Made by a program: the position numbers and the translations under genes
Source: an uncultured Solibacteraceae bacterium
Lineage (GTDB): Bacteria > Acidobacteriota > Terriglobia > 20CM-2-55-15
DNA: 43,479 bases
Direction of reading: 5' to 3'
Assembly: GCA_964541075.1 (NCBI GenBank)
Contig: CAZIPZ010000003.1
Location: 1 to 43,479 of the forward strand
Notes under the pieces: model-generated
Told to the model about the DNA's origin: nothing
Database searches by the model: none
What the model saw: the letters and a program-made list of their open reading frames with translations, nothing else
Shown: positions 18,752-37,057 of the stretch, in pieces
Numbering within the stretch: the stretch's first letter is position 1
Layout: the number at the start of each line of letters is the position of its first letter

Positions 18752-19723
18752 ATGAAGCCGGTGCGCGTCCTATACCACGACAACTGCTTTGACGGCGTCT
18801 CGTCCGCTGCGGTCTTCTCTCGTTTTTATCGAGCCCAGGTGAACCGTAATGCGGAGATTGAGTACGAAGGTCTTACGCACAAGGCCGGTCAAAAAATCGG
18901 GGATGAGCTGTTCAGTGAGGGCGAGAATGTCATTGTCGATTTCAAGTACAGCGCATCAGACAAACTGACCTGGTGGTTCGACCATCATGAAAGCGCTTTT
19001 CTATCGCCCCACGATGAGGCGCATTTCCGAAGCGATGAGAGCGGCAGAAAATTTCATGACCCGACTTTCAAGTCGTGCACCAAATTCATCGCCTCAATAG
19101 CGCGCGACGTGTTCGGCCATCCACTTGCGGATCTTTCGGACCTCGTGTATTGGGCTGATATCATCGATGGCGCACAGTTCCCGGATGCAAAAAGCGCAGT
19201 CGAGTTGAAGGAACCGGCGATGCGGCTAATGCTGGTGATCGAGGCGAGCCACAGCCCTGAGTTGATTCATCGAATCATTCGCGAGCTGCAACACAAGGCG
19301 CTGTCTGACGTGATTGCAGACCCGGAAGTGCGCTCAATGTTTGAAACGCTTTACGCCCACCATTTTGACTCGATCGGAATCATGCGTCAGGCTGCTACAT
19401 TTAAAGACGGAGTCGTTTTTTTTGATGTCAGCGACCATGACCTTGACGGTCACAACAAATTCATACCTTACTACTTGTTTCCTGACAGCGTGTACTGTGT
19501 GGGAGTCAGCAAATCACCCGCGCGGGCGAAGGTGTCGGTGGGAACCAATCCTTGGACCCGCCGCGAACGGCGTCACAATCTGGCGAAACTCTGCGAAAAG
19601 TACGGAGGCGGAGGACATTCCGTGGTTGCGGCGATTTCATTTCGGCCAAATGAGCTAGAGAGCGCCCGCGAGGCCGCACATGAAATCGCGCAGAAACTTC
19701 AGAACGATCTACGAAACGCATAA
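18752..19723 (+). CDS. DHH/DHHA1-family phosphoesterase
   Basis: DHH motifs are readable: HDNCFDG (motif I), VIVDF (motif II), FDHHES (the DHH motif) and a C-terminal GGGGH (DHHA1). The substrate cannot be inferred. Confidence 0.7.
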   Translation: MKPVRVLYHDNCFDGVSSAAVFSRFYRAQVNRNAEIEYEGLTHKAGQKIGDELFSEGENVIVDFKYSASDKLTWWFDHHESAFLSPHDEAHFRSDESGRKFHDPTFKSCTKFIASIARDVFGHPLADLSDLVYWADIIDGAQFPDAKSAVELKEPAMRLMLVIEASHSPELIHRIIRELQHKALSDVIADPEVRSMFETLYAHHFDSIGIMRQAATFKDGVVFFDVSDHDLDGHNKFIPYYLFPDSVYCVGVSKSPARAKVSVGTNPWTRRERRHNLAKLCEKYGGGGHSVVAAISFRPNELESAREAAHEIAQKLQNDLRNA

Positions 19724-24555: not shown

Positions 24556-25795
24556 AGCGATCCGTCTGGCCCTGGACTCCTTGCGGAGACACTCACTGCG
24601 ATCGTTTTTGACAGTTCTTGGCGTCGTTATCGGCGTAGCCACAGTCATCGGCATGTCATCTATTATCGCGGGTTTGAATGGAAGCATCGTTTCCCAATTG
24701 GAGGACATCGGATCAAATCTTATCTTCGTCTCGCGCTTTCCGCCCACGGTGGGAGGACGTCTCCCGCCCGAAGTAGTGAACCGGAAAAGGCTCAACCTGG
24801 ACGATGCAAAAGCAATTTCTGAGCTTCCGAACGTCAGAGCTGTAGCTCCAGTGCTCCGCTATTTTTCACCGGCCGCGGATGCATCGTCCTACACGGTTCG
24901 TTATCGTGATCGCTCCGCAAAAAACACGATCATGGAGGGGGTTGTCCCGCAGCAGGAAACTGTCATGAACCTTCGATTGGCCGCGGGGCGCTGGATCACC
25001 GAAGCTGATCACAGGCGTCGGGCAAACGTCGTTGTTCTTGGGTACGATACTGCGGAAACCATATTCCCGGTGTCGGTGGATCCGATAGGAAAAGAGGTTG
25101 AACTCGCCGGCAATGTCTTCACTGTGATCGGCGTCCTGGAGAAACGGCGGGATTCTCTAAATCCCGGCGCCAATCCTAACGACAATGTGGCGGAGATGCC
25201 TGTGGGAACGTTCTGGCGACTCCATCCGGAGCAAAAGGACTTTTGGTTTGCCATAAAACCGGTTTCTCAAGAAACGATGAGTGGAGTGATAGATAACATT
25301 GAACAGATCCTTCGAAGGCGGAGAGGAGTTCCGCTAAATAAAGACAGCGACTTCGCTATTTTCACCCAGAACACATTTACGGATCTATGGAATCAGATTT
25401 CAAGAGGCATTTTTACGGTGATGCTGGGTATTTCTTCGATTGCTCTGCTCGTAAGCGGGGTTGGCGTCATGAACATTATGCTCGTTTCGGTCACTGAGCG
25501 GACCCGCGAGATCGGTATTCGGAAAGCGACAGGTGCGACGAGACGGGACATTCTCATTCAATTTCTCTTTGAGGCCATGACACTCACGGCCGTTGGCGGC
25601 GTTCTAGGCATTGTCGCCGGCGCGAGTTTGACGGCGTTGATACGTCAATTGGTTCCGTTTCTTCCTGCCGCAGTGTCGTTGTTTTGGGTCACGCTGGGTT
25701 TCGTAACCTCGGTCACCGTAGGCCTAATCTTCGGTCTTTATCCAGCCTATCGTGCAGCATCGTTGGATCCGATTGAGGCTCTGCGATACGAATAG
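24548..25795 (+). CDS. MacB/FtsX-family ABC transporter permease (paralogue)
   Basis: Same architecture and the same motifs (VMNIMLVSVTERTREIGIRKATGA, DPIEALRYE). The ATG at 24548 overlaps the upstream stop (ATGAGTGA). Confidence 0.85.
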   Translation: MSEAIRLALDSLRRHSLRSFLTVLGVVIGVATVIGMSSIIAGLNGSIVSQLEDIGSNLIFVSRFPPTVGGRLPPEVVNRKRLNLDDAKAISELPNVRAVAPVLRYFSPAADASSYTVRYRDRSAKNTIMEGVVPQQETVMNLRLAAGRWITEADHRRRANVVVLGYDTAETIFPVSVDPIGKEVELAGNVFTVIGVLEKRRDSLNPGANPNDNVAEMPVGTFWRLHPEQKDFWFAIKPVSQETMSGVIDNIEQILRRRRGVPLNKDSDFAIFTQNTFTDLWNQISRGIFTVMLGISSIALLVSGVGVMNIMLVSVTERTREIGIRKATGATRRDILIQFLFEAMTLTAVGGVLGIVAGASLTALIRQLVPFLPAAVSLFWVTLGFVTSVTVGLIFGLYPAYRAASLDPIEALRYE

Positions 25796-25804
25796 CATCA
25801 AGCA

Positions 25805-26623
25805 ATGCCGGTCGTGGCGTCGATTCCGACAAGCCTTCGACGGTATCTTCCACTCCTTTCAGTTCGAGAACTCTTAGGTTCTTCGATTGCAATGGGGACC
25901 TTTATGGGTCTTGCAACCTTGCAAACGGCGCAAAGATTGTATCGAGACTGCGGATTGAAAGCTGTTGTCGTCGTAGTGCTGAAGAAGGTGATCAGTCCAT
26001 TCGCCCAAGCTGGAAGCATCTATTTTATGGAGCGGGACCTGAGAGCAGAAATGCCACCGCTGCGGCCCATTCCGGGCATTGTTGCACGTGAAGGCTCATT
26101 CTCCGATCTTCACTTACTCGATGCTGTCGAAAATGGCGCACTTCTCAAACAGAGGGCGATCCAGCGATTGCAGAAGGGCGACCGGTGGTTCATAGGCGTC
26201 GAAGAGTCCACCGGCAAACTGACTAATTATCGGTGGGCTTCGTTGACGAGTGGTTTTGTTCTTGAACTCGGCCGGACGCTGACTCTGGAGCCAGGCCAAG
26301 CCTATATATACGACCTCCAGACGGCGCCTGAGTTCAGACGGCGCGGTATTGAGGGATTCACGCGTCAGTTCACTTACGATCGGCTCCATCGGCAATACGG
26401 CGCTGATCGCATCACCGTTTACATTTGCGCGGACAATCATGCCAGCCTGCAGGCGGGTCGAGCGTACCTTACGCCTGTCGGCCGCATCTGGTACCTCAAA
26501 GTCCGTGGATTCGCACGCCGCATCTTTATGATTCCGACTGGTCGGACGCCTCGATTGACCGAGGCCTCCGCTGAGTTTCCTCAGGCTGCAGCCTTCGCGC
26601 GACTCTCAAATTCGCGAAGGTAG
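25805..26623 (+). CDS. GNAT-family N-acyltransferase (putative)
   Basis: The C-terminal half has a GNAT motif-A-like segment (YIYDLQTAPEFRRRGIEG). The N-terminal ~90 aa are unassigned and the start is uncertain. The gene begins 9 nt after the permease stop. Confidence 0.5.
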   Translation: MPVVASIPTSLRRYLPLLSVRELLGSSIAMGTFMGLATLQTAQRLYRDCGLKAVVVVVLKKVISPFAQAGSIYFMERDLRAEMPPLRPIPGIVAREGSFSDLHLLDAVENGALLKQRAIQRLQKGDRWFIGVEESTGKLTNYRWASLTSGFVLELGRTLTLEPGQAYIYDLQTAPEFRRRGIEGFTRQFTYDRLHRQYGADRITVYICADNHASLQAGRAYLTPVGRIWYLKVRGFARRIFMIPTGRTPRLTEASAEFPQAAAFARLSNSRR

Positions 26624-27312
26624 GCCAACTCTTCCACCGTAGGTTCCGGGGTTTCATGAACAGGATGGGATAGTTGAAGGGGCCAGCCGGTCGCTTCCTT
26701 GATTTCCTCCACCGTGACTCCAGGATGGCGGCTTACGAGCATGAGTTCTCGTGTCCAAGGATCAGGCGCAAGAACAGCTAGATCCGTTACTACTGCGGTA
26801 ACGCGGTCACCGGGAGTCGTCAGGAAATCGAGAGTGTTTACCATAGCCCTCGGTGAGTGACGAAGAATGACGATCACCTCGCGAGCGTTAGTCGCGATCT
26901 CCGGGGCCCCTCCCGCACCCGGGAGTCGTACACTCGGCCGGAGATAGTCTCCGATTACCGTCGAATTAAGATTGCCGAATCGATCGATCTGCGCGGCGCC
27001 GAGAATGGCCATGTCAATGCGTCCACCCTGCAACCAATAGGTGAACATTTCGGGAATGCTGACGATGAAATCGCAAGTGTTTGTGAGCTCATCAGCCGCA
27101 ATGGAAAGTGGCGCGAAGGAGGGTTTGGCTCCGACGGTTCCCGACTCATATATCAAAATTGATTTCGGCGCATGGTGCTTCCGGGCGATACAACCCGCGA
27201 GTCCCGGCATTCCTACACCTATGAAACACGTTGCTCCATTACGGAATCGCCGTGCCACTTCTATTGTCATCAGTTCTGCTTTTGCGTACCGTCGTTCAAT
27301 TGTGCTCGACAT
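26581..27312 (-). CDS. CoA-transferase subunit B (glutaconate / 3-oxoacid CoA-transferase family I)
   Basis: Typical beta-subunit start (ELMTIEVARRF.NG...FIGVG.P) and a YESG segment carrying the candidate catalytic Glu. Start placed at the ATG at 27312, overlapping the subunit A stop by 17 nt. Confidence 0.8.
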   Translation of the reverse strand: MSSTIERRYAKAELMTIEVARRFRNGATCFIGVGMPGLAGCIARKHHAPKSILIYESGTVGAKPSFAPLSIAADELTNTCDFIVSIPEMFTYWLQGGRIDMAILGAAQIDRFGNLNSTVIGDYLRPSVRLPGAGGAPEIATNAREVIVILRHSPRAMVNTLDFLTTPGDRVTAVVTDLAVLAPDPWTRELMLVSRHPGVTVEEIKEATGWPLQLSHPVHETPEPTVEELAYLREFESRAKAAA

Positions 27313-28174
27313 GTTCTTCAATCCACCGGAGAAAAAGATTGCGGTCCCTGGATATTCCGTCCCACGCCCGGTAAAACGTGTCATCGCGCGGATAGTAACC
27401 TTGTGTATATGAAGGTCTGGCTCCCTGAGGTGCGTGCACGACAGCAGTTACGACCCATGAAGGCAGCACGATGCCGTTAGGCGCAGGTCGAACTGTATCG
27501 CAGATCTCCTCAACCGTAACGATGGATCGCCTTGAGGCAAGAACAGTCTCCTTTTGAATTCCGGTCACTCCCCACAGTGAAACGTTGCCCTCACGATCTG
27601 CCTGTTGGGCGTGAATAATCGCTACATCCGGGCGAATAGCTCGCACGGCCATAATCTCCGCGCCTGTGAAGGGACACTTAATGGGCGCGACTGTTTTGGT
27701 GTGTTTCAAGAGGTCATTGCCGGCATAGCCGATCAAAACGCCAAATGGGAGTCCTGCAGCGCCGGCCGTGATCGCTGCGGCCAGCCCAGCGTGGCTGTGT
27801 TCTTCGATTTCGAGAGGATTTGGCCAGTGGTTTTCAACGGCGTCGCGAAATCGCGGGGACAGCCCCACGCCAGGGTTTCCAGCCCACGAAAAAATCATCT
27901 TTCGCGCACATCCGGCTCCGATCATCTGATCGTAAATGAGATCAGGGGTCAGGCGGATCAGGGTTAAATCGCGCCGTTTCTGTCGAATAATTTCGTGTCC
28001 TGCAGCGAATGGAATCAGGTGGCTGAAACCCTCAGCCGCGATCGAATCGCCGTTATGCACCAGTTCGGTAATTGCTTCTTTAAGAGTACAAATCTCCGCC
28101 ATACCGCCATGCTTTTGCAAGCAGGCTTCCAGGAGTTCCAAAACCCCGGCGCCTAAAGACAACGATTGCGGCAC
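27296..28174 (-). CDS. CoA-transferase subunit A (glutaconate / 3-oxoacid CoA-transferase family I)
   Basis: Alpha-subunit features (LKEAI.ELV.NGDSIA.EGF, AITAGAAGLPF, DVAIIHAQQADREGN). The GTG at 28174 or the ATG at 28102 are possible starts. Confidence 0.8.
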   Translation of the reverse strand: MPQSLSLGAGVLELLEACLQKHGGMAEICTLKEAITELVHNGDSIAAEGFSHLIPFAAGHEIIRQKRRDLTLIRLTPDLIYDQMIGAGCARKMIFSWAGNPGVGLSPRFRDAVENHWPNPLEIEEHSHAGLAAAITAGAAGLPFGVLIGYAGNDLLKHTKTVAPIKCPFTGAEIMAVRAIRPDVAIIHAQQADREGNVSLWGVTGIQKETVLASRRSIVTVEEICDTVRPAPNGIVLPSWVVTAVVHAPQGARPSYTQGYYPRDDTFYRAWDGISRDRNLFLRWIEEHVEHN

Positions 28175-28332
28175 GGCGCTGCGCGCTGCTGTGGAAGGGC
28201 CTCACAAACCAACCCGACACGGGTAGGATTGGCGGCAGGAGTGTGTCCCTAAGCTTCCATTCAACAGAGTTGTGCTACCACAACCTTCACTTTCTCCACG
28301 CTTAATTTGCTGGAACCCTAATGGAATGTCTA

Positions 28333-28348
28333 CGGCACAGCTATTGCA
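28333..28348 (+). promoter_or_regulatory. candidate sigma-54 (-24/-12) promoter
   Basis: CGGCACAGCTATTGCA compared with the consensus TGGCACG-N4-TTGCW. GG (28334-35) and GC (28346-47) have the exact spacing. It lies about 50 nt upstream of the GTG start of the A-T gene. Confidence 0.5.
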
Positions 28349-28398
28349 AGGTCAGACGCGTGGTCGGAGCGGCTAATTCGACAAAGGAGTAATAGTAC

Positions 28399-30255
28399 GT
28401 GGAAAAGAGCAACGGAACTTCAGATAGCGTTCTTCTGCATCGAAGCATTCCTCGGTTAGTGGAGGATCAGTCTGTCACTCGGCCTGACACAGTAGCGGTT
28501 TTTGCAGGGCCCCTAGTCATAACCTACAAAGAGCTGGTTGATCGAGCCACGATGCTGGCGGGATATCTTCAGGAAAGCGGTGTTCTAACGGACACCGTCG
28601 TCGCCTTATGCATGAAGAGTTCGATCGCCATGGTGGTTGGAGCTCTCGGCGTGTTCAAAGCGGGCGCTGCATATTTGCCTCTGGATCCGTCCTTTCCCGA
28701 AAAACGGCTTTCATACACTCTGGGCGACGCCCAGACGACAATGGTAATCACAACACGGGATGAGGCGCGCAACATTCCTGAGGGTCCTTGGAAAATCGTC
28801 GAGCTCGATGAAAGAGGCGTTCTTCTAAACTCCAGAGGCGCAACGCCGAAAGCCGCGAACATTAAAGAGAATGATCTTGCCTACGTCATCTACACCTCCG
28901 GTTCCACCGGCCAGCCGAAGGGTGTGGAAGTCACCCATGGCAATTTGAGGAACCTGCTGAGCTGGCACCAGGCCGCTTTTTCGACAACGGCCGCAGATCG
29001 GGCGACGCTTATTGCAGGCGTCGCCTTCGATGCTGCGGTGTGGGAATTGTGGCCGTATTTGACAGTTGGGGCCAGCCTGCACGTTCCCTCGGAAGCCGTG
29101 CGCACCGACCCGGAGGCAATGCGAAATTGGCTTGTCGACCAGAAAATCACGATCAGCTTTCTACCGACCGCGATGGCTGAACGCGTCATGAGGCTCGAGT
29201 GGCCGCCGGATACGGCTCTCAGAACGTTACTCACCGGCGCCGACACGCTGCATCAGTATCCAACGTGCGCACTGCCGTTTGTTCTTGTGAACAACTACGG
29301 ACCAACCGAGTGCACAGTTGTTGCGACGTCTGGGGTGGTGTCATGCGTGGAAAAATTCACTGAGTTGCCCAGTATCGGCCGGCCTATCACAAACTCACGG
29401 GTCTATATACTTGATGAACAACAGAATCCAGCGCCCGCGGGCGAGCCCGGAGAACTCTATGTAGCCGGACGCAACGTGGCTCGCGGGTATCGGAATCATC
29501 CGGAGCTCTCCGCAGCAAAGTTCCTTCACGATCCCTTTGTGGACGGCGACCGCATGTATAGGACCGGGGATCTGGGGCGTTACACAAGCGACGGCCAAAT
29601 CGCTTTTCTCGGGCGGATTGATGATCAGATCAAACTTCGCGGTTATCGCATCGAACCAAATGAGGTCGTTGGCGTTCTGAATCAGCACCCGGGTATCTCA
29701 GAAAGCGCGCTGGTTGCGCAGACATTTTCCGGTGATGAAAAAAGGCTCGTGGCCTATGTCGTTCCGGAATCCACATCAGTACTTGAAAGTGACGGCATCC
29801 TGGAGTTTCTGCGGACGAGACTTCCCGATTACATGACACCCTCGGCTTTTGTGCTGTTGGACCAACTGCCTCTGACGCACAGCGGAAAGCTCGACCGCGC
29901 CGCGCTTCCGGAGCCAAGCCCCGGGAATACGCTCGGAAGCAAATCGTGTGTCGGCCCGCAGTCTCCTGTAGAGGAGCGCATGGCGCTTCTTCTAGCGGAG
30001 CTTCTGGATGTAGACCGAATCGCGATGAACGACAACTTCTTCCATCTTGGCGGCCATTCTTTGCTGGGAGCGCAACTGATCGCCCGGATTCGGGATGTGT
30101 TTGGAGTGGAGGTTTCACTGCGAACGCTTTTTGACAATCCTACAGTTGAAGGAATTTCCGCTCAGATCGAGGAACTCATTCTTGAAATGTTGGAAGAGTT
30201 CAGTCCGATTGAGGGACAAGGCATTTTGGCTAGCGAAGGCAGACCTGCGGCGTAA
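28399..30255 (+). CDS. stand-alone NRPS adenylation-thiolation (A-T) didomain protein, predicted Leu-activating
   Basis: All ten A-domain core motifs are readable: TYKEL, FKAGAAYLPLDP, LAYVIYTSGSTGQPKGV, FDAAVWE, NNYGPTE, GELYVAGRNVARGY, YRTGDL, GRIDDQIKLRGYRIE, LPDYMTP, SGKLDR. The carrier-protein motif FFHLGGHSLL follows. AAGGAG lies 9 nt upstream of the GTG. No C, E or TE domain. Confidence 0.9.
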   Translation: MEKSNGTSDSVLLHRSIPRLVEDQSVTRPDTVAVFAGPLVITYKELVDRATMLAGYLQESGVLTDTVVALCMKSSIAMVVGALGVFKAGAAYLPLDPSFPEKRLSYTLGDAQTTMVITTRDEARNIPEGPWKIVELDERGVLLNSRGATPKAANIKENDLAYVIYTSGSTGQPKGVEVTHGNLRNLLSWHQAAFSTTAADRATLIAGVAFDAAVWELWPYLTVGASLHVPSEAVRTDPEAMRNWLVDQKITISFLPTAMAERVMRLEWPPDTALRTLLTGADTLHQYPTCALPFVLVNNYGPTECTVVATSGVVSCVEKFTELPSIGRPITNSRVYILDEQQNPAPAGEPGELYVAGRNVARGYRNHPELSAAKFLHDPFVDGDRMYRTGDLGRYTSDGQIAFLGRIDDQIKLRGYRIEPNEVVGVLNQHPGISESALVAQTFSGDEKRLVAYVVPESTSVLESDGILEFLRTRLPDYMTPSAFVLLDQLPLTHSGKLDRAALPEPSPGNTLGSKSCVGPQSPVEERMALLLAELLDVDRIAMNDNFFHLGGHSLLGAQLIARIRDVFGVEVSLRTLFDNPTVEGISAQIEELILEMLEEFSPIEGQGILASEGRPAA

Positions 30256-30285
30256 GTCCGCATCGAGACGCAAGAGAGGAGACAG

Positions 30286-31530
30286 ATGGGCGTTCAAGAC
30301 GTTAAAGAGGTCGTCAGTCCGCCACCGAGTTTGTATCACCTAATCGATCCCGAAGTACTGGCGAATCCTTACCCCTTGTACCACCGGCTGCGGTCCGAGC
30401 GCCCTGTGCACTGGGATCCGTTTCTCCATTCCTGGGTGGTGACACGTTACGTGGATGTTGTGCGTGTTTTGCACCACTTCAGCGCCGATCGAACTCCGAC
30501 TCCCGATCAACTGACCGCCAAGGGACTCTCCGAACTGAATCCGATCGCCCAAGTTATGGTGCGTCAGATGTTGTTCATGGACGCTCCAGACCATACGCGG
30601 CTGCGCGCTCTGGCGCAGGCGGCTTTTACATGTGGGCGCGTCGAGCGTCTTCGTTCTCACATTCAGGAGATTGCTGATGGATTGCTCAGCAAGGTGATCG
30701 CATCCGGCCGCATGGATGTCATTTCGGACTTTGCAAGTCCGCTGCCGGCAATCGTGACTGCCGAAATGCTGGGAGTTCCCACCAAGGATCATGCCCAGCT
30801 GAAAGCGTGGTCCGCGGACTTCGCTGAGATGCTCGGAAACTTTCAGCACAATCCGGGCCGGATCGCACGCGTGCTGGAAAGTGTCGAGGCAATGACGTCC
30901 TATTTTCGATCGGCCATGCGGGAGCAACGGGAGCACCCGCGGGACGGCCTGATAACCGCCATGATGAATGCGGAAGTTAACGGAGCCCGGCTGACTGAAG
31001 AGGAAATCGTCGCGAACATTATCGTCACCATGGTCGGAGGTCAGGAGACGACAACGAACTTGATCGGAAACGGCATTCTTTCGCTGCTGTGCAATCCTCA
31101 TCAGCTTGAGAAGCTGCGAAACGACTCGTCCCTCATCCCATCCGGAATCGAAGAGCTTCTTCGCTACGAAAGCCCAAGCCAACACACTGCTCGCATTGCT
31201 CCGGACAATGTCGAGATGGGAGGCCAACGCATCAAGAAAGGACAAGCGGTAGTCGCCGTGATGGCCGCAGCAAATCGCGACCCAGAGCGCTTCCCCGATC
31301 CCGACCGTCTCGATGTCGAACGTAAGGACAATCGACATGTCGCTTTCGGATGGGCCGCGCACTTCTGCTTTGGGGCTCCGCTGGCTCGTCTTGAGGGTCA
31401 GATTTCATTCGAGACCATTTTGCGGAGGCTGCCGAATTTGGCGCTTGATGCCTCAAAGCCGGTCGTCTGGCGCCACAACCTCGGCCTCCGGGGCCTGAAC
31501 GCCCTTCATGTGACATTTGGGAACGGATAA
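30286..31530 (+). CDS. cytochrome P450
   Basis: I-helix GGQETTTN, K-helix EELLRYESP (ExxR), and the Cys-ligand loop FGWAAHFCFGAPLAR. It starts 30 nt after the A-T stop and is preceded by GAGAGGAG. Confidence 0.92.
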   Translation: MGVQDVKEVVSPPPSLYHLIDPEVLANPYPLYHRLRSERPVHWDPFLHSWVVTRYVDVVRVLHHFSADRTPTPDQLTAKGLSELNPIAQVMVRQMLFMDAPDHTRLRALAQAAFTCGRVERLRSHIQEIADGLLSKVIASGRMDVISDFASPLPAIVTAEMLGVPTKDHAQLKAWSADFAEMLGNFQHNPGRIARVLESVEAMTSYFRSAMREQREHPRDGLITAMMNAEVNGARLTEEEIVANIIVTMVGGQETTTNLIGNGILSLLCNPHQLEKLRNDSSLIPSGIEELLRYESPSQHTARIAPDNVEMGGQRIKKGQAVVAVMAAANRDPERFPDPDRLDVERKDNRHVAFGWAAHFCFGAPLARLEGQISFETILRRLPNLALDASKPVVWRHNLGLRGLNALHVTFGNG

Positions 31531-31710
31531 ATGATTCAGACGGAGGCTTCTTCCAGTTCCGCTTCCAGGCGCGCTCTCCTGGAAAAGTCCCTCCAGGCGA
31601 ATAACAAGAAAAAAACTGAAAGGCGCACAGCCAATCCTCCCCGGTCGAGTGGCGATCCAGCGCCCGGTGAGGAAGTCCAAATGCAGCCTGAACAGCAGAA
31701 TTTCGTCTAA
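31531..31710 (+). CDS. 59-aa hydrophilic ORF, start abutting the P450 stop (uncertain coding status)
   Basis: TAAATG junction with the P450. My hand translation is MIQTEASSSSASRRALLEKSLQANNKKKTERRTANPPRSSGDPAPGEEVQMQPEQQNFV. It falls just below the 60-aa cutoff of the supplied ORF track. Confidence 0.3.
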   Translation: MIQTEASSSSASRRALLEKSLQANNKKKTERRTANPPRSSGDPAPGEEVQMQPEQQNFV

Positions 31711-31721
31711 CGGAGGCAAAA

Positions 31722-32006
31722 ATGGATTTCGACATCTTTAAGGGCAAATGGAAACAGATGAAGGGAGATCTGAAGGCCAAGTGGGGCCAGATCACTGACG
31801 ACGAATGGACTGAGATTAACGGTGATCGCGACAAGTTGATCGGCCGGCTTCAGGAAAGGTATGGTCGCGCGAAAGATGATGTCCGGACTGAGGTGGACGA
31901 CTTTTTCAGGAACATCGATCTCACCCGCCGGGACCGAACCGGCGTTGACGACATCAGTGGCGAGGAAAGGACTCCCAAACCCGGCCGCGATCGCAAGGTA
32001 TCCTAG
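31722..32006 (+). CDS. CsbD-family stress-response protein
   Basis: GKWKQMKGDLKAKWGQITDDEWTEINGDRDKLIGRLQERYG is the CsbD signature. GGAGG lies 5 nt upstream of the ATG. Confidence 0.8.
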   Translation: MDFDIFKGKWKQMKGDLKAKWGQITDDEWTEINGDRDKLIGRLQERYGRAKDDVRTEVDDFFRNIDLTRRDRTGVDDISGEERTPKPGRDRKVS

Positions 32007-32067
32007 GCGTTTTTCCTACTGCCCACAGTCCTCTAAATCCGGCGGTATCTCAGTTCCAAGTCGCTGC

Positions 32068-32093
32068 AAATGGCGCCAACAATGGCGCCATTT
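32068..32093 (+). terminator. candidate intrinsic terminator hairpin after csbD-like gene
   Basis: AAATGGCGCC-AACAAT-GGCGCCATTT forms a perfect 10-bp stem with a 6-nt loop, 62 nt after the stop. The U-tract is short (TTTGTGAT), so strength is uncertain. Confidence 0.45.
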
Positions 32094-32569
32094 GTGATCC
32101 TTGCTGCCGGCAGCGCAGATGGAAGCTCTCTTAGAAAGCATTCCATACCGCCTGGAATCAAGCGCCAGCGCTCCCACAACCCGGAGGCGCTGAATCTCTC
32201 TTCAAGCCAGACGCTCCGTCGCCACAATCGCGGAAGCCCTCAATGCGGAGCAAGCGAAAACAATACTCAACGCTTTAGGATTGCGCGAACAGGCCGTAGT
32301 GCGCCTAGCGATCCATTCCTTTCAAAATCAGGCCGAAATGACACCGATTGTCCGCCGGGTGCTGCTGAGTTGAGCCAATTTGGCATCGAGCCTCAGTTAG
32401 CGGGATCGCCTGAATAGGGGTATGGAGGCGGAACTCGGTGTTCCTCCATCGTTTCATCAACGGAATCAATCAACTAACCCCAAGGACGATCATGGAAGCG
32501 CGCGTGCTGATTGTGGCCGCGTTACTCTTCAACAAGAGAGAGAACCAAACGACAACAAGGAGAAAACCC

Positions 32570-33094
32570 ATGATCGCAAGAGTGCGCAAAACCAGTTTGA
32601 TCGGCTTCCTAATGATTCTTGGCTTAACGTTTCTTCTAACGGCGGGTGAGGCCGTCGCGCAAATCCGTCCGGCATATACCAAAAACGTCGATGAACGTGG
32701 TCGGATACCATACCAGCAGAGGGCCAGCCAGATCGGTTTCATTGCCGGCTGTGATCAGACGAACTGCAACTTGGACCTGCCCCCAGCTCCCGCCGGAAAA
32801 CGTCTGGTGGTCGAGCACGTCTCCATCCTTCACTGGTGCGTTGGGCAGGCTCCCGCGCTCAGCACCATAGATCTTCAGTCCATGGAGCCAGGCAATCTCT
32901 TTCCGCGAGCCTTTCTGCCTGTCGCCGCGGTTGGGTTTTCTGGCGCGTATCAAGCCGTCGTAGATAAGCCGGTTCGTTTATACGTCGAGCCAGGACATTT
33001 TCCGCGAGTGTACACGCAGTACACCTGCAATATGGGGACGTATTTCAGGATGGACGTAAGTGTCGTCGGCTATTTGATCGACGCGACGAACTAA
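32570..33094 (+). CDS. hypothetical secreted protein (174 aa)
   Basis: The ATG at 32570 is preceded by AAGGAG 8 nt upstream. Signal peptide MIARVRKTSLIGFLMILGLTFLLTAGEAVA/Q. The mature part contains Cys residues and has no motif I can name. The upstream 132 nt of the ORF is rejected. Confidence 0.55.
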   Translation: MIARVRKTSLIGFLMILGLTFLLTAGEAVAQIRPAYTKNVDERGRIPYQQRASQIGFIAGCDQTNCNLDLPPAPAGKRLVVEHVSILHWCVGQAPALSTIDLQSMEPGNLFPRAFLPVAAVGFSGAYQAVVDKPVRLYVEPGHFPRVYTQYTCNMGTYFRMDVSVVGYLIDATN

Positions 33095-33266
33095 ATTTGG
33101 ATTGGGCGGAGTTGGATCGATGCGGTCATCGCAATTTGCCACGGACAGGTTCGCTGGATCCGACGGTATTCCAACTTCGATTTTCCTCCGCCATCCAACC
33201 GACTAGCGTGACGACCGCTATGCCAAGGGTCTCTGGAGTCACTATGGTCGCGACTTCGGCTAACAA
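33095..33266 (-). pseudogene. decayed fragment of an rve/integrase-type transposase N-terminal region (multiple frameshifts)
   Basis: Minus-strand translation split over three frames gives ..TIVTPETL / WH.GR.. / MAEENRSW / YRRIQ / ANL... This resembles the conserved V.P.TLLRWHR ... RMA.ENP.WGYRRIQGEL..LG segment of IS481/IS3-like transposases, recalled from memory. No intact ORF, catalytic domain or inverted repeats are present. Confidence 0.35.
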
Positions 33267-33457
33267 TCTACGGCTGAGCAATTTCGCTTCGATTGCAGAC
33301 CGTGGACAGCTGGCCTATCATTGACACCGGCTTCGGCATGGCCGCCGAAGTACACGATTCTCTTCCACCACGAAACACAACCCTGAAATCAACAAAACTT
33401 AAGATAGACTAGGGATTCTAGAGGACTGCCTTCCCAGTTAGAGATAAAATCTTGAAA

Positions 33458-33793
33458 ATGACCAAGGAAGATTTGTTTGAGCAAGCTGTAGACGCCTTTA
33501 GCGAGCAGAGGCTTGATGAGTCGATTGAGAAGTACAAAAAAGCTCTCGATATCGATCCGACCTATCAGGATGCCCTGCATGGACTTGGGATGGCTTTTTT
33601 TAACAGCGGGCGTGTTGATGAAGCCGTCGAAACAGCTAAGAAGCTAATCGAAATTGACAAGGAAGACATTCTGGCCCATACCAGTCTATCAATGTTCTAC
33701 CAGTCGCAGGGTCGGATTGAAGAGGCCGAAAAAGAGGGGAACGTTGCTCGGATCCTTGGATGGAAGCAGGAGCTTCGCCAGGATCAGAAATAG
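33458..33793 (+). CDS. TPR-repeat protein
   Basis: About three TPR units (..AV.AF...R.DESIE.YKKALDIDP.Y.DALHGLGMAF...GR.DEAVE..KK.IEID..). ATG at 33458; the ORF track begins at the TTG at 33452. Confidence 0.75.
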   Translation: MTKEDLFEQAVDAFSEQRLDESIEKYKKALDIDPTYQDALHGLGMAFFNSGRVDEAVETAKKLIEIDKEDILAHTSLSMFYQSQGRIEEAEKEGNVARILGWKQELRQDQK

Positions 33794-33892: not shown

Positions 33893-35968
33893 GTGGGGTC
33901 CATGTCTGTTGTAGTTACCGACACCGATCAACTCGTTCAGTTCCTTAAGAACGTCAAACTCTTCGCTGAACTGGGTTCCGACAGCCTTACGAAACTGGGG
34001 GCATGCCTTAAGACCGCAGAATTTCCACCAGCCGAGGTCATCGTGCGTGAAGGCGCCCCCGGAGTTTCGATGTACATCATCAAGGCGGGGCTGGTCGAGG
34101 TGCGCAAAAAGGATCCCGCCACTGGTATTGATTTTCTAGTCGCCCAGCTGTCCGAAGGCGCCGCAGTAGGCGAAATGTCGCTCCTTACGGGTAAACCCCG
34201 ATCCGCCACCGTTACGACAGTGCAGCCCACGGTGGTATTCACCCTGACACGCGCCGATTTCAGAAACCTGTTAACGCAGCATCCCGAAATTTCTCTTGGA
34301 TTGGCTCGCATTCTCGCTGAACGATTAGAAGATGCGACAAAGCAGGTGGGTATCGAGTATGTCAACCTCTTCAAAGGTAAGTTCGATCCCCGTGTGGTCG
34401 GCCTGCTTCCACAAGCGCTATGCACTCTCCATAAGGTCGTACCGATCGCCTATGTGAACAACTCCGTCACGCTGGCAATGGTGAATCCTTCTAATTTGGT
34501 TGCGTTCGACGACGTGCGCCGTTACATCAAGGGCGTCATTATCGAGCCGCAGGTCTGTACGGAAGAAGATTTCCGGAAGTTCATGGACACGATTTATCCG
34601 GACCTCATGGGCCTTAAGGAAGAGAAGAAGGAACCAGACAAACGTAAGGAGGAGGCTGAGCGAAAAAAGGAGGACAAAAAAGCCAGGAGCCCTGACGTGC
34701 CTCAGCAGAGCCTGGAGGACCTGCAGGCGGAGATCCTCGGTGGAATGGAGGTTCAGAGCGAAGAAGAAGACAAACCGACAACGGTTGAACTAGCGACGGC
34801 CTCAGAAGACGCACCCGTTGTGCGGCTAGCCAACAACATCCTCGCCTTGGCCATTAAGAAGGGCGCCAGCGACATTCACATCGAGCCGCAGGAAAAAGGC
34901 GTCGTACTGCGGCTGCGCATTGACGGCATATTGCATGTCGAGAATGTTCTTTCCAAGAAGATTCAATTGCCGCTCGCTTCGCGCTTCAAAATTTTGTCGC
35001 GATTGGACATTTCGGAACGCCGCCTTCCGCAGGACGGCCGTATTTCGATTCGCATCGATGATCGGGCCATTGACTTTCGCGTTTCGACCGTGCCCGCAAA
35101 GTTCGGTGAAAAGATCGTTATGCGCGTTTTGGACAAGAGCGGCGCGTTGCTGCCTTTGGACAAGATCATCGTCCATACTCCAACCGTCGAAAAACTGCGA
35201 TGGATGATTAGTCAGCCCTACGGCATTATCTATGTCACAGGCCCGACGGGTTCCGGTAAAACCACCACCCTGTACAGTTCGCTGAGCGAAATCAACTCAC
35301 CCGAAGTCAACATTTCCACAGCCGAAGATCCGATTGAATACGACCTTGCCGGCCTCTGCCAAGTGCAAACACATAAGGACATCGGTCTTGATTTCGCACG
35401 GATTCTTCGCGCCTTTCTGCGCCAAGACCCGGATGTGATCCTTGTCGGTGAAACACGTGACCAGGAAACCGCAAAAATATCCGTCGAGGCGGCACTGACC
35501 GGCCACCTGGTATTTACAACGCTTCACACGAACGACGCTCCGGGATCATTCACGCGTCTGGAGGAAATGGGCATTGAACCATTCCTGATGGCGAACTCCA
35601 CCATCGGCATCATCGCTCAACGTCTCGCCCGCAGGTTGTGCCAGAACTGCAAAGTGCAGACCGAGGTAGACGACACGACATTGGGATACTTCGGCTACGC
35701 AAGAGAAACAGCGCCGCCCTTCTACAAGGGTGAAGGTTGCGACAAATGCAATCGGACGGGAAAGAAAGGCCGCGTTGGAATCTACGAATTGCTCCTGATG
35801 ACCGATGACCTCCGACGCATCGTCGCCTCAGGGGCCAAAACGGACGAGATCAGGGACGCTGCTCGCAAAGCTGGAATGAAGACGTTGAAAGAGTACGCGA
35901 TGATTCTGATGTCGGAAGGTTTGACCGATGTCGAAGAAGTTCTGAGCAATCTCGTCGTTTCGAACTGA
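33893..35968 (+). CDS. PilB/GspE-family secretion/pilus-assembly ATPase with N-terminal cyclic-nucleotide-binding domain
   Basis: - aa ~15-140: a CAP-type cNMP-binding domain with an intact phosphate-binding cassette (VGEMSLLTGKPRSATV).
- aa ~150-235: a T2SSE_N-like segment.
- Then a Lys/Glu-rich linker.
- Then the ATPase core: IHIEP, Walker A GPTGSGKTTT, Asp box, Walker B DPDVILVGETRD, His box TGHLVFTTLHTN, and the tetra-Cys motif CQNC..CDKC. Confidence 0.88.
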   Translation: MGSMSVVVTDTDQLVQFLKNVKLFAELGSDSLTKLGACLKTAEFPPAEVIVREGAPGVSMYIIKAGLVEVRKKDPATGIDFLVAQLSEGAAVGEMSLLTGKPRSATVTTVQPTVVFTLTRADFRNLLTQHPEISLGLARILAERLEDATKQVGIEYVNLFKGKFDPRVVGLLPQALCTLHKVVPIAYVNNSVTLAMVNPSNLVAFDDVRRYIKGVIIEPQVCTEEDFRKFMDTIYPDLMGLKEEKKEPDKRKEEAERKKEDKKARSPDVPQQSLEDLQAEILGGMEVQSEEEDKPTTVELATASEDAPVVRLANNILALAIKKGASDIHIEPQEKGVVLRLRIDGILHVENVLSKKIQLPLASRFKILSRLDISERRLPQDGRISIRIDDRAIDFRVSTVPAKFGEKIVMRVLDKSGALLPLDKIIVHTPTVEKLRWMISQPYGIIYVTGPTGSGKTTTLYSSLSEINSPEVNISTAEDPIEYDLAGLCQVQTHKDIGLDFARILRAFLRQDPDVILVGETRDQETAKISVEAALTGHLVFTTLHTNDAPGSFTRLEEMGIEPFLMANSTIGIIAQRLARRLCQNCKVQTEVDDTTLGYFGYARETAPPFYKGEGCDKCNRTGKKGRVGIYELLLMTDDLRRIVASGAKTDEIRDAARKAGMKTLKEYAMILMSEGLTDVEEVLSNLVVSN

Positions 35969-36046: not shown

Positions 36047-37057
36047 CTAGTCCGCTGCCGAGGCCGAAGCTTCCTTATAGAATCGCTCGTACTCCGCAAC
36101 GTCGTGCTTGCAACCGATGATCAAAGGCACTTTTTGGTGGAGAGCCTGGGGCTGAATGTCGAGTATTCGTTCGGTGCCCGTCGAAGCCGCCCCGCCAGCC
36201 TGCTCCACGACCATCGCCAGAGGTGCAGCTTCATATAGCAGCCTTAGCTTTCCCTTGGGTCCAGGGTAAAGAAAGATGCCGCCCTTCATTAGATTTCTAT
36301 GGAAGTCTGCGACAAGTGAGCCGATGTAGCGCAGAGAGTAAGGTCTTCCTTGATCCTTCTTGTCTTCCTTCAAGTATTCGACGTAACGGCGAGTGCCCGC
36401 ATCCCACTGACTGACGTTTCCTTCATTGATACTGTAAATCTTTCCGCGAGTAGGCGTGCGGATGTTTTCGTGCGAGAGCAAGAACTCGCCCAAGCTTGGA
36501 TCCAGAGTGAAGCCGTGAACGCCGTGACCCGTGGTGTAAACCATCACCGTACTGGAGCCGTAGATGAAGTAACCGGCGGCCACTTGTGATGATCCTCTCT
36601 GCAGGCAATCCTCGATTGATCCGTCCTCGGAGTTTTGCGTGATTCTTCGATGAATTGCGAAGATGGTTCCGATGCTGGCATTGACGTCGATGTTTGAAGA
36701 ACCATCGAGCGGGTCAAACATCAAAACGTACTTGCCCCTTTTTCCTCCATCTGGGATGGGTATAACATTCTCGGATTCTTCGGAAACCATCACACACAGA
36801 TGGCCCGTGTGGCCCATCGCCCGGTAAATCGTCTGCTGGGCAAACTCATCGAGCCTCATGACGGTTTCACCGTGAACATTTTTGTTCGCCGTTTCGCCGA
36901 GGATCTTAACGAGACCAGCCTTATTAACCTCACGGGAAATAATTTTTGCCGCCAGGATCAGATTGGTGAGCAGTGCGGTGAAGTCGCCCGTCGCGCCCGG
37001 ATAGAGCCGCTCTTCGTCTAGAATGTGCTGTTGAACCGTCCGGATCTTGCCTGTCAA
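36047..37057 (-). CDS. fbp: fructose-1,6-bisphosphatase class 1
   Basis: 336 aa. FDPLDGSSNID metal-binding motif and the GKLRLLYEA.P...V.EQAGG C-terminal region. Confidence 0.93.
   Translation of the reverse strand: MTGKIRTVQQHILDEERLYPGATGDFTALLTNLILAAKIISREVNKAGLVKILGETANKNVHGETVMRLDEFAQQTIYRAMGHTGHLCVMVSEESENVIPIPDGGKRGKYVLMFDPLDGSSNIDVNASIGTIFAIHRRITQNSEDGSIEDCLQRGSSQVAAGYFIYGSSTVMVYTTGHGVHGFTLDPSLGEFLLSHENIRTPTRGKIYSINEGNVSQWDAGTRRYVEYLKEDKKDQGRPYSLRYIGSLVADFHRNLMKGGIFLYPGPKGKLRLLYEAAPLAMVVEQAGGAASTGTERILDIQPQALHQKVPLIIGCKHDVAEYERFYKEASASAAD

Follow-up and report, generated by a model that had tools for sequence, protein, structure and literature searches.

Which second messenger could address a pilus- or secretion-type motor ATPase that carries a cyclic-nucleotide-binding domain at its N-terminus, and which machine could such a motor serve? 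The question is raised by one gene in a 43,479-nucleotide stretch of DNA (contig CAZIPZ010000003.1 of assembly GCA_964541075.1; the whole stretch is hereafter called the window), which comes from an uncultured Terriglobia (Acidobacteriota) bacterium of a bioreactor metagenome. We consider it reasonably probable that the product is an accessory PilB-type motor gated by a cyclic mononucleotide (cNMP), in which a cyclic-nucleotide-binding (CNB) domain has taken the place of the sensor for cyclic di-GMP (c-di-GMP); ligand, partner machine and function are the parts that we infer. The open reading frame (ORF) is as follows:

33893..35968, + strand: fusion ORF, cNMP-binding / MshEN_C / PilB-GspE-type ATPase, 691 amino acids from GTG 33893

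The true start is probably ATG 33902, three codons inside GTG 33893 and giving 688 amino acids, because the 30 close homologues, which all begin with MS[AVT]V..., and the 688-amino-acid database copy of the window protein begin there. All residue numbers of the window protein are counted from GTG 33893.

The N-terminal part of the protein contains two features of the sensor:

33938..34342, + strand: CAP/PKA-type CNB domain, residues 16-150, with N-terminal helices, an eight-stranded beta-roll and the B and C helices (Pfam, phmmer against the PDB, AlphaFold2, Foldseek)
34169..34213, + strand: phosphate-binding cassette (PBC) GEMSLLTGKPRSATV, residues 93-107 (regular expression)

Pfam recognizes cNMP_binding (PF00027) at residues 43-130 with an E-value of 1.2e-18 and 67.3 bits against a gathering cut-off of 27.5. 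Searched against the PDB with phmmer, the CNB domain matches the regulatory subunit of protein kinase A (PKA-R) with an E-value of 2e-23, followed by PKG, MloK1, SthK, and CRP, the range being about 1e-23 to 1e-12. The full-length AlphaFold2 (AF2) model, for which a 62-sequence family alignment served as input, has a mean predicted local distance difference test score (pLDDT) of 87; it places the PBC helix at 94-99, the B-helix at 120-129, and a long C-helix at 131-151, with pLDDT of about 90 or more. A separate AF2 model of residues 1-245 was matched by Foldseek to cAMP-bound GlxR, the CRP of M. tuberculosis, and Clr, and also to PKA RI-alpha and CNB-B of PKG (template modelling score, TM, 0.8-0.86; root-mean-square deviation 1.5-2.2). 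The beta-roll and the B/C-helix fold are thus found in the window domain by both AF2 and Foldseek. An earlier interpretation made from the letters alone, referred to here as the sequence-only reading, had proposed a cNMP-binding fold, and profile, sequence, and structure searches all back it.

The cassette GEMSLLTGKPRSATV carries the Gly-Glu ... Arg-[Ser/Thr]-Ala pattern of a PBC and lines up with the PBCs of yeast PKA-R. It had been described as intact, and it is; the regular expression finds it at residues 93-107, and it is conserved family-wide. In the set of 135 fusion proteins, 133 retain Gly93, 127 Glu94, 120 Arg103, and 119 Ala105, although members share only about 30-40% identity. Loss of the PBC is the usual mark of CNB domains that do not bind cNMP. 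The sequence Arg-Ser-Ala occurs in the PBC of CRP and MloK1, and Arg-Thr-Ala is typical of the cGMP-selective sites of PKG. The window PBC reads Arg-Ser-Ala, the form known from CRP and MloK1, and cyclic AMP (cAMP) is therefore a somewhat more likely candidate ligand than cyclic GMP (cGMP); across the family, the residue at this position is Ser in 59 members, Thr in 36, Asn in 16, and Ala in 10.

The CNB-fold domain might instead sense neither cAMP nor cGMP, and respond to another small molecule or serve only in dimerization or autoinhibition. It is established that folds of the CRP/FNR superfamily take diverse ligands, and the cAMP-independent PKA-R homologues 6hyi and 6ftf are among the Foldseek matches of the CNB domain. 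In addition, a subclade of eight members (P0337, P0340, P0342, P0345, P0347, P0361, P0365, and P0368) has a degenerate PBC (GLAE...H) that lost both the Glu and the Arg while the domain was kept. However, G-E-x-[AS]-L...R-[ST]-A is present in the window protein and in about 90% of the family, and the best matches are cNMP-bound structures, so this explanation is regarded as very improbable.

Behind the CNB domain lie the retained docking domain of the motor and a linker:

34349..34606, + strand: MshEN_C alpha/beta subdomain, corresponding to N1 of PilB/GspE, residues 153-238 (Pfam PF05157, E 4.6e-13; AF2 pLDDT 90+)
34613..34798, + strand: Lys/Glu-rich low-complexity linker, residues 241-302 (disorder predicted by AF2 to about residue 305, with pLDDT <50 over 243-305)

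In the AF2 model, a low-confidence hinge of 2-3 residues (151-153) joins the C-helix of the CNB domain to N1, which is compact at 154-239. Residues 149-240 of the query pair with residues 71-161 of Geobacter PilB in the phmmer alignment; therefore, the CNB domain of about 150 residues stands in for residues 1-70 of PilB. MshEN is known to bind c-di-GMP by two 24-residue motifs, with MshEN_C as a separate alpha/beta subdomain (PMC5013675), and the present 'MshEN' of Pfam (PF05157) is this retained C-terminal alpha/beta half. The c-di-GMP motif, a tandem pair of RLGxx(L/V/I)(L/V/I)xxG(L/V/I)(L/V/I)xxxxLxxxLxxQ, was applied in a relaxed form of Wang et al. 2016 (PMC5013675); it gave no match in the window protein and none in the 135 fusion proteins, and in the positive control, it was found N-terminally in 11 of 17 canonical PilB/GspE relatives. 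Judged by alignment and motif content, the CNB domain stands where MshE/PilB have MshEN_N, their four-helix bundle for binding c-di-GMP. Because the defining c-di-GMP motifs are absent, the protein is, as far as its sequence tells, not an MshE-type c-di-GMP receptor. The sequence-only reading had placed a cAMP/cGMP-type sensor at the position of MshEN; the alignment and the absence of the motif agree with it, with the correction that only the N-terminal four-helix half is swapped and the alpha/beta half is kept.

The remainder of the protein is the motor itself, whose features are as follows:

34799..35944, + strand: PilB/GspE ATPase core, N2 and C-terminal ATPase domain, residues 303-684 (Pfam T2SSE, PDB, Foldseek)
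35240..35263, + strand: Walker A GPTGSGKT, residues 450-457 (regular expression), invariant in the 62-sequence family alignment
35312..35338, + strand: Asp box ISTAEDPIE, residues 474-482 (regular expression), with E478, D479, P480, and E482 invariant in that alignment
35435..35461, + strand: Walker B VILVGETRD, residues 515-523 (regular expression), with G519, E520, and R522 invariant in that alignment
35519..35533, + strand: His box TLHTN, residues 543-547 (regular expression), with H545 invariant in that alignment
35639..35749, + strand: tetra-Cys motif CQNC (583-586) ... CDKC (616-619), a putative zinc site (regular expression), with C583, C586, C616, and C619 invariant

The T2SSE match (PF00437, residues 303-684) reaches an E-value of 2.1e-125 and 418.7 bits against a cut-off of 24.9. 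In the PDB phmmer search, the window protein scored 451 bits with Geobacter PilB, 399 with V. vulnificus GspE (4pht), and about 392 with V. cholerae EpsE. Foldseek laid the core, modelled at pLDDT 90+, on Geobacter PilB 5tsh/5tsg with TM 0.92-0.95 and 50% identity; the next structural neighbours were Thermus PilF (46% identity) and Vibrio EpsE (47-48%; TM 0.82 for 1p9w), and 4pht was aligned over 514 columns. The nearest solved relatives of the core are hence the type IVa pilus (T4aP) PilB proteins of Geobacter and Myxococcus, then PilF and EpsE. The tetra-Cys motif marks assembly ATPases, and PilT has none. By all the sequence and predicted-fold marks of the class, the window protein belongs to the PilB/GspE assembly ATPases. 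The architecture described earlier from the letters, a cNMP domain and an N-terminal motor segment joined through a KE-rich linker to an ATPase, is seen by both Pfam and the sequence; in the Pfam scan that had been suggested, cNMP_binding, MshEN/PF05157, and T2SSE all lie well over their gathering scores. The ATPase was also correctly read as complete, with Walker A and B, the Asp and His boxes, and the tetra-Cys motif all matched.

Assignment within the class is less direct, as none of the equivalog models reaches its cut-off. The window protein scored 553.5 bits with TIGR02538 (T4aP PilB equivalog; cut-off 675.65), 553.1 bits with TIGR02533 (GspE equivalog; cut-off 630.25), 35.8 bits with TIGR03819 (TadA; cut-off 373), and 427.6 bits with NF053534 (TfpB equivalog; cut-off 850). 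Since every equivalog score lies under its cut-off and no pil or gsp partner genes lie near the fusion gene in the window or within about 10 kb at related loci, the window protein is not filed as PilB, GspE, TadA, or TfpB. A Tad-like motor, one of the three options of the sequence-only reading next to a pilus and a type II secretion system (T2SS), was ruled out by the TadA model (36 bits against 373) and by the tetra-Cys motif and N1, which are PilB/GspE traits. Public names of family members are generic ('ATPase, T2SS/T4P/T4SS family', 'TadA', 'PilB'), and the 'TadA' label that some relatives bear at NCBI is likewise a generic name.

The same data bear on the possibility that the fusion is the sole or primary PilB or GspE of its host, encoded apart from its machine, so that cNMP would control the whole pilus or T2SS. 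In favour are a complete core with 50% identity to Geobacter PilB and, in passages of Ellison et al. (PMC8213720), the mention of one species that has TfpB without PilB. A rough neighbor-joining tree of the ATPase core, which is distance-based, midpoint-rooted, and without curated references, divides the fusions into two large groups, with canonical PilBs, 1000-residue PilF-like proteins, and Bdellovibrionales double-module proteins between them; canonical PilBs are thereby nested among fusion clades, with no clean outgroup. The scores of the PilB and GspE equivalogs are not reached, however, and this explanation is considered unlikely.

The preferred reading, a cNMP-gated accessory motor, would operate in the following way. 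The window protein would assemble as a PilB-like hexamer, and a cyclic mononucleotide would dock in the conserved PBC. By analogy with CRP, PKA-R, Epac, and MloK1, ligand binding would shift the C-helix of the CNB domain, and as this helix runs via the hinge of 2-3 residues into N1, the ligand could alter the orientation or availability of N1. N1 of GspE is known to bind GspL. The change in N1 would toggle docking or activity of the motor on a PilM/PilC- or GspL/GspF-type platform encoded elsewhere. The fusion would then be a signal-dependent, probably accessory, extension motor that parallels the c-di-GMP gating of MshE with another messenger.

The fusion has been found in many genomes. In a 90%-clustered collection, the best 120 matches all share 84-91% identity with the window protein, and each of them has the three Pfam domains detected in it. 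Their sources are JGI, ENA, and NCBI metagenomes; where a source is named, it is a metagenome-assembled genome (MAG) of Acidobacteria or Terriglobia. With residues 1-250 as the query against a 50%-clustered library, about 30 clusters among the top 150 showed one alignment across CNB and MshEN_C, with identity down to about 31%. GTDB species representatives, scanned with a 4-sequence family alignment, yielded at least 46 loci that match CNB and MshEN_C. Their labels are those of Terriglobia, Vicinamibacterales, Syntrophorhabdaceae, and 'delta proteobacterium' MAGs, with single MAGs labelled Sericytochromatia and Acidimicrobiia. A search from a divergent member added about 90 further 90% clusters from Myxococcales, Polyangiales, and Deltaproteobacteria MAGs. 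Pfam detected cNMP_binding and MshEN in 49 of 49 diverse members and T2SSE in 48. An N-terminal zinc ribbon (Zn_ribbon_4) is present in six of these 49 members; in the Terriglobia of group B (e.g., L010, L015, L043; P0129, P0140, P0304), the zinc ribbon and a low-complexity spacer precede the cNMP domain.

Every accession seen for the family is a MAG. The fusion family is widespread in soil and sediment bacteria of several uncultured lineages and is not a rarity. The architecture is implicit in precomputed Pfam annotations, and in the searchable literature, which leaves most subscription journals outside, no description of a cNMP-PilB/GspE fusion was found, only unrelated co-occurrences. It had been said that the proposal would fall if the architecture proved to be common and already characterized: common it is, and a characterization was found nowhere in that literature.

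The sensor and docking domains also occur in other arrangements. In Bdellovibrionales MAGs, a form of about 890 residues has a tandem (cNMP_binding+MshEN_C)x2 before the ATPase (P0210, P0268, P0386-P0410; the loci L083 and L084 are also orphaned). Two sequences from independent 50% clusters, P0132 (924 residues) and P0145 (419 residues), both of which may be partial, end in CNB+MshEN_C without an ATPase domain. In P0132, Pfam detected Guanylate_cyc (class III cyclase), Pkinase (Ser/Thr), and an FlgO-like region ahead of CNB+MshEN_C; the Pfam scan covered P0132 only, and P0145 was read from its sequence. Because of the tandem in Bdellovibrionales and the ATPase-free copies in P0132 and P0145, CNB+MshEN_C is, by its domain arrangements, a portable two-domain module. 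A wider generalization can be offered only tentatively, and we would sooner doubt than assert it: PilB-type motors of Acidobacteriota, Syntrophorhabdaceae, Myxococcota-like bacteria, and Bdellovibrionales may, although encoded apart from pilus genes, be gated directly and post-translationally by cAMP or cGMP as dedicated signal-dependent second motors of type IV filament assembly, with CNB+MshEN_C as a 'messenger-to-platform' module that was swapped in for the c-di-GMP module and would also be used on cyclase-kinase proteins.

Two genes flank the fusion in the window:

33452..33793, + strand: gene of a tetratricopeptide-repeat (TPR) protein, 113 amino acids, cytoplasmic, 99 bp upstream of the fusion gene (Pfam TPR families)
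36047-37057, - strand: gene of fructose-1,6-bisphosphatase (FBPase; fbp), convergent, downstream of the fusion gene (Pfam)

Both flanks are as the sequence-only reading had named them, and its description of the gene as orphaned in the window also holds. A Pfam scan of all substantial ORFs of the window found no PilC/GspF, PilM-Q, PilT, secretin, prepilin peptidase, or gsp cluster, and a six-frame regular-expression search of the window found no prepilin leader of the G-F-T-L-I-E type. In L001, L002, L003, and L082, the gene immediately before the fusion gene encodes an orthologue of the TPR protein (65-82% identity), and the 113-residue protein is a possible co-transcribed partner. A consensus scan around the fusion gene detected no promoter and two terminator-like matches, both on the wrong strand and inside the ORF; in the gap between the TPR gene and the fusion gene, it detected neither a promoter nor a terminator. 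A search for RNA runs of the source bioreactor metagenome turned up DNA runs only.

The survey of genomic context covered about 55 loci of five lineages within +/-10 kb; ORFs were clustered around the 46 loci and the window, and seven further contigs were read with Pfam. Its outcome belongs to several points that weigh against a cNMP-gated accessory motor. Genes for pilC/gspF, pilM-Q, pilT, pilin, secretin, or gsp were found at 0 of the approximately 55 loci within about 10 kb; orphan status is a trait of the whole family, and because no platform or pilus gene lies near any locus, it is homology alone that links the protein to a filament machine. A class III cyclase gene lies within 10 kb in only three of about 54 loci, which is about chance by a rough estimate for cyclase-rich phyla, in which the number of class III cyclases per genome was not counted but assumed to be a few dozen. 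The sub-cut-off scores for both the PilB and the GspE equivalogs also count here, and bacterial CNB folds often bind other ligands. Finally, the Walker A motif is degenerate in P0187, P0229, P0238, and P0255 (e.g., GPHNSSKT, GPRGSGRS), and with such subclades of degenerate Walker A or PBC, the proposed mechanism cannot hold for all members; these may be pseudo-ATPase or pseudo-sensor derivatives.

The neighbours of the fusion gene differ among lineages. In the clade of the window, the order is MacB-MacB-...-TPR-[fusion]-<fbp-<lpxD-<hemYHE. In other Terriglobia, the fusion is followed by a BadF/NagK-like kinase gene (Pfam BcrAD_BadFG) and by SIS-domain and GH3 (NagZ-like) genes named by eye, that is, from the sequence without a profile test. 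Syntrophorhabdaceae have MoxR-VWA-UppS-[fusion]-DedA/VTT (Pfam), then <UppP and <TolAQR (by eye); Vicinamibacterales have <SpeA-[fusion]-dynamin-like (by eye); and Myxococcota-like MAGs have <M23 peptidase-[fusion] (Pfam). PilT-like ORFs beside the Vicinamibacterales copies were rejected as split or frameshifted pieces of the fusion gene, or as overlapping-frame artefacts and unrelated ORFs.

These neighbourhoods raise the explanation that the ATPase left filament assembly and became a cNMP-responsive signalling or remodelling ATPase, for example in envelope or exopolysaccharide control, with N1 docking non-pilus partners. It has been reported that PilB of M. xanthus also signals for exopolysaccharide production, as stated in passages of PMC5544727. 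Across the whole family the gene stands as an orphan, and the genes beside it often concern the envelope: lpxD and a GT2 gene in the clade of the window; UppS, DedA/VTT, and, by eye, UppP in Syntrophorhabdaceae; a BadF/NagK-like kinase gene and, by eye, SIS and GH3 genes in other Terriglobia; and an M23 peptidase gene in Myxococcota-like MAGs. In addition, CNB+MshEN_C occurs ATPase-free in P0132 and P0145. On the other hand, the neighbour sets are wholly different between lineages, so that no single other pathway is implied, and all PilB-type mechanochemical motifs, the zinc motif included, are invariant. We know of no ATPase of the PilB/GspE clade with a filament-independent primary role. This explanation is held to be quite unlikely.

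A few loci offer anecdotal hints of a cNMP circuit around the preferred accessory motor. One is L005, where a CHASE2-class III cyclase gene begins 25 bp past the fusion gene. In L086 (GCA_016218825.1; 1518-6834), genes for a HAMP-cyclase, a bactofilin, a TPR+cNMP protein, and the fusion ATPase follow one another in this order on the same strand, and in L040 (8574-11989), a TPR+cNMP gene, 41% identical to its counterpart in L086, is directly upstream of the fusion.

Three side observations may be added. An upstream TPR gene recurs in the clade of the window and in L086 and L040, yet the TPR parts are without detectable homology. A gene of the GAF-HD(-GYP) phosphodiesterase type stands divergently beside the fusion gene in L005 (1251-3179, - strand), L008, and L011, which are Terriglobia/Acidiferrales MAG contigs. 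In L001 (10007-12221 of OZ253536.1, a chromosome-level Terriglobia MAG), the orthologue is split into ORFs of 276 and 448 residues inside the Lys/Glu-rich linker; the split site is an A/G-rich repetitive coding stretch, and the split is probably an assembly indel and not a pseudogene.

The rest of the window consists of housekeeping and secondary-metabolism genes. Pfam identified polA, lpxC, rlmH, a sigma-54 activator, nadD, obg, xerC/D, trmFO, accD, gltX, and a CDF transporter; an acyl-CoA dehydrogenase, a rhomboid protein, Tex, two MacB/FtsX proteins, CoA-transferase A/B, a non-ribosomal peptide synthetase (NRPS) A-PCP didomain, a P450, and CsbD; and FBPase, lpxD, hemY/H/E, GT2, and pdxJ. 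Three of these regions may be described further:

25795-33458: a stretch of about 7.66 kb without a counterpart in the syntenic L082, where the TPR gene lies within 114 bp of the second MacB; it contains a 272-residue ORF (no Pfam match), CoA-transferase A/B, the NRPS A-PCP didomain, which is stand-alone, the cytochrome P450, CsbD, and a 218-residue ORF (no Pfam match), and it looks like a small secondary-metabolism cassette, inserted in the window or deleted in L082
6171-7109, - strand: the sigma-54 activator, 312 residues, with AAA+, lid, and Fis-type helix-turn-helix (HTH) parts and no N-terminal receiver or sensor; PspF-like
18752-19723, + strand: a conserved ORF of 323 residues, syntenic in L001, L002, and L082, with a sub-threshold DHHA1 match (E 0.002); its product may be a divergent DHH-family phosphoesterase

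The second messenger known to control pilus and T2SS motors is c-di-GMP, acting directly via MshEN or via FimX/PilZ. To our knowledge, cAMP acts on pili only transcriptionally, via Vfr/CRP. If the accessory-motor reading is true, the cis-fused CNB domain adds a direct cAMP/cGMP input to the motor, and the sensor tip of PilB-type proteins would be an exchangeable cassette ahead of a constant N1 docking domain. Two natural sensor versions on one chassis would make it possible to ask how the poorly understood N1 gates motors. The phyla in which the family is abundant are of environmental importance but little studied.

Among known systems, MshE of V. cholerae and the MshEN-PilB/PilB2 proteins of M. 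xanthus and C. perfringens share with the fusion the PilB/GspE core, the tetra-Cys motif, and the order of N-terminal sensor, MshEN_C, and linker (PMC5013675; PMC11656802). MshE is known to be gated by c-di-GMP (PMC11656802), and the presumed logic, in which a nucleotide messenger acts through the N-terminal domain on the activity or engagement of the motor, would be common to all of them. In contrast to these proteins, the fusion has a CAP/PKA-type beta-roll and no four-helix bundle with two 24-residue motifs, its gene stands outside a pilus operon, and its predicted ligand, unlike that of MshE, is a cyclic mononucleotide. The PilB proteins of Geobacter metallireducens and G. sulfurreducens (5TSG, 5TSH, 5ZFR, 6OLJ) provide the nearest solved structure, in which N1/MshEN_C aligns as well; they have about 70 N-terminal residues where the fusion carries its CNB domain of 150.

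TfpB of Acinetobacter baylyi is described, in passages of PMC8213720, as a PilB paralogue that is non-syntenic with pilC and, acting on the same pilus machine, co-drives the extension of the pilus. Like the fusion, it is encoded by an orphan motor gene, and because it sets this precedent, an orphan gene is compatible with an accessory motor; unlike the fusion, it belongs to another subfamily (NF053534, 427.6 against 850), and those passages of PMC8213720 do not mention a cNMP-binding domain in it.

CRP/Vfr/GlxR, PKA-R/PKG, and MloK1/SthK have the same CNB fold and PBC, and their C-helix leads straight into the effector, which is the classical allosteric route. The effector is an HTH, a kinase-inhibitor site, or a channel gate in these proteins, whereas it is the PilB N1 and the motor ATPase in the fusion. 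Control of type IV pili by cAMP through Vfr in P. aeruginosa is transcriptional (PMC11656802), whereas control by the fusion would be direct and post-translational. In the FimX-PilZ-PilB system of Xanthomonas and Pseudomonas, messenger input also reaches the N-terminal domain of PilB (PMC8389850; PMC11656802); there, the input is indirect and comes through separate c-di-GMP-binding adaptors, whereas the fusion carries a sensor of a different type in cis. By analogy, we infer that the fusion would in its working come closest to MshE, or to an MshEN-PilB whose sensor has been exchanged.

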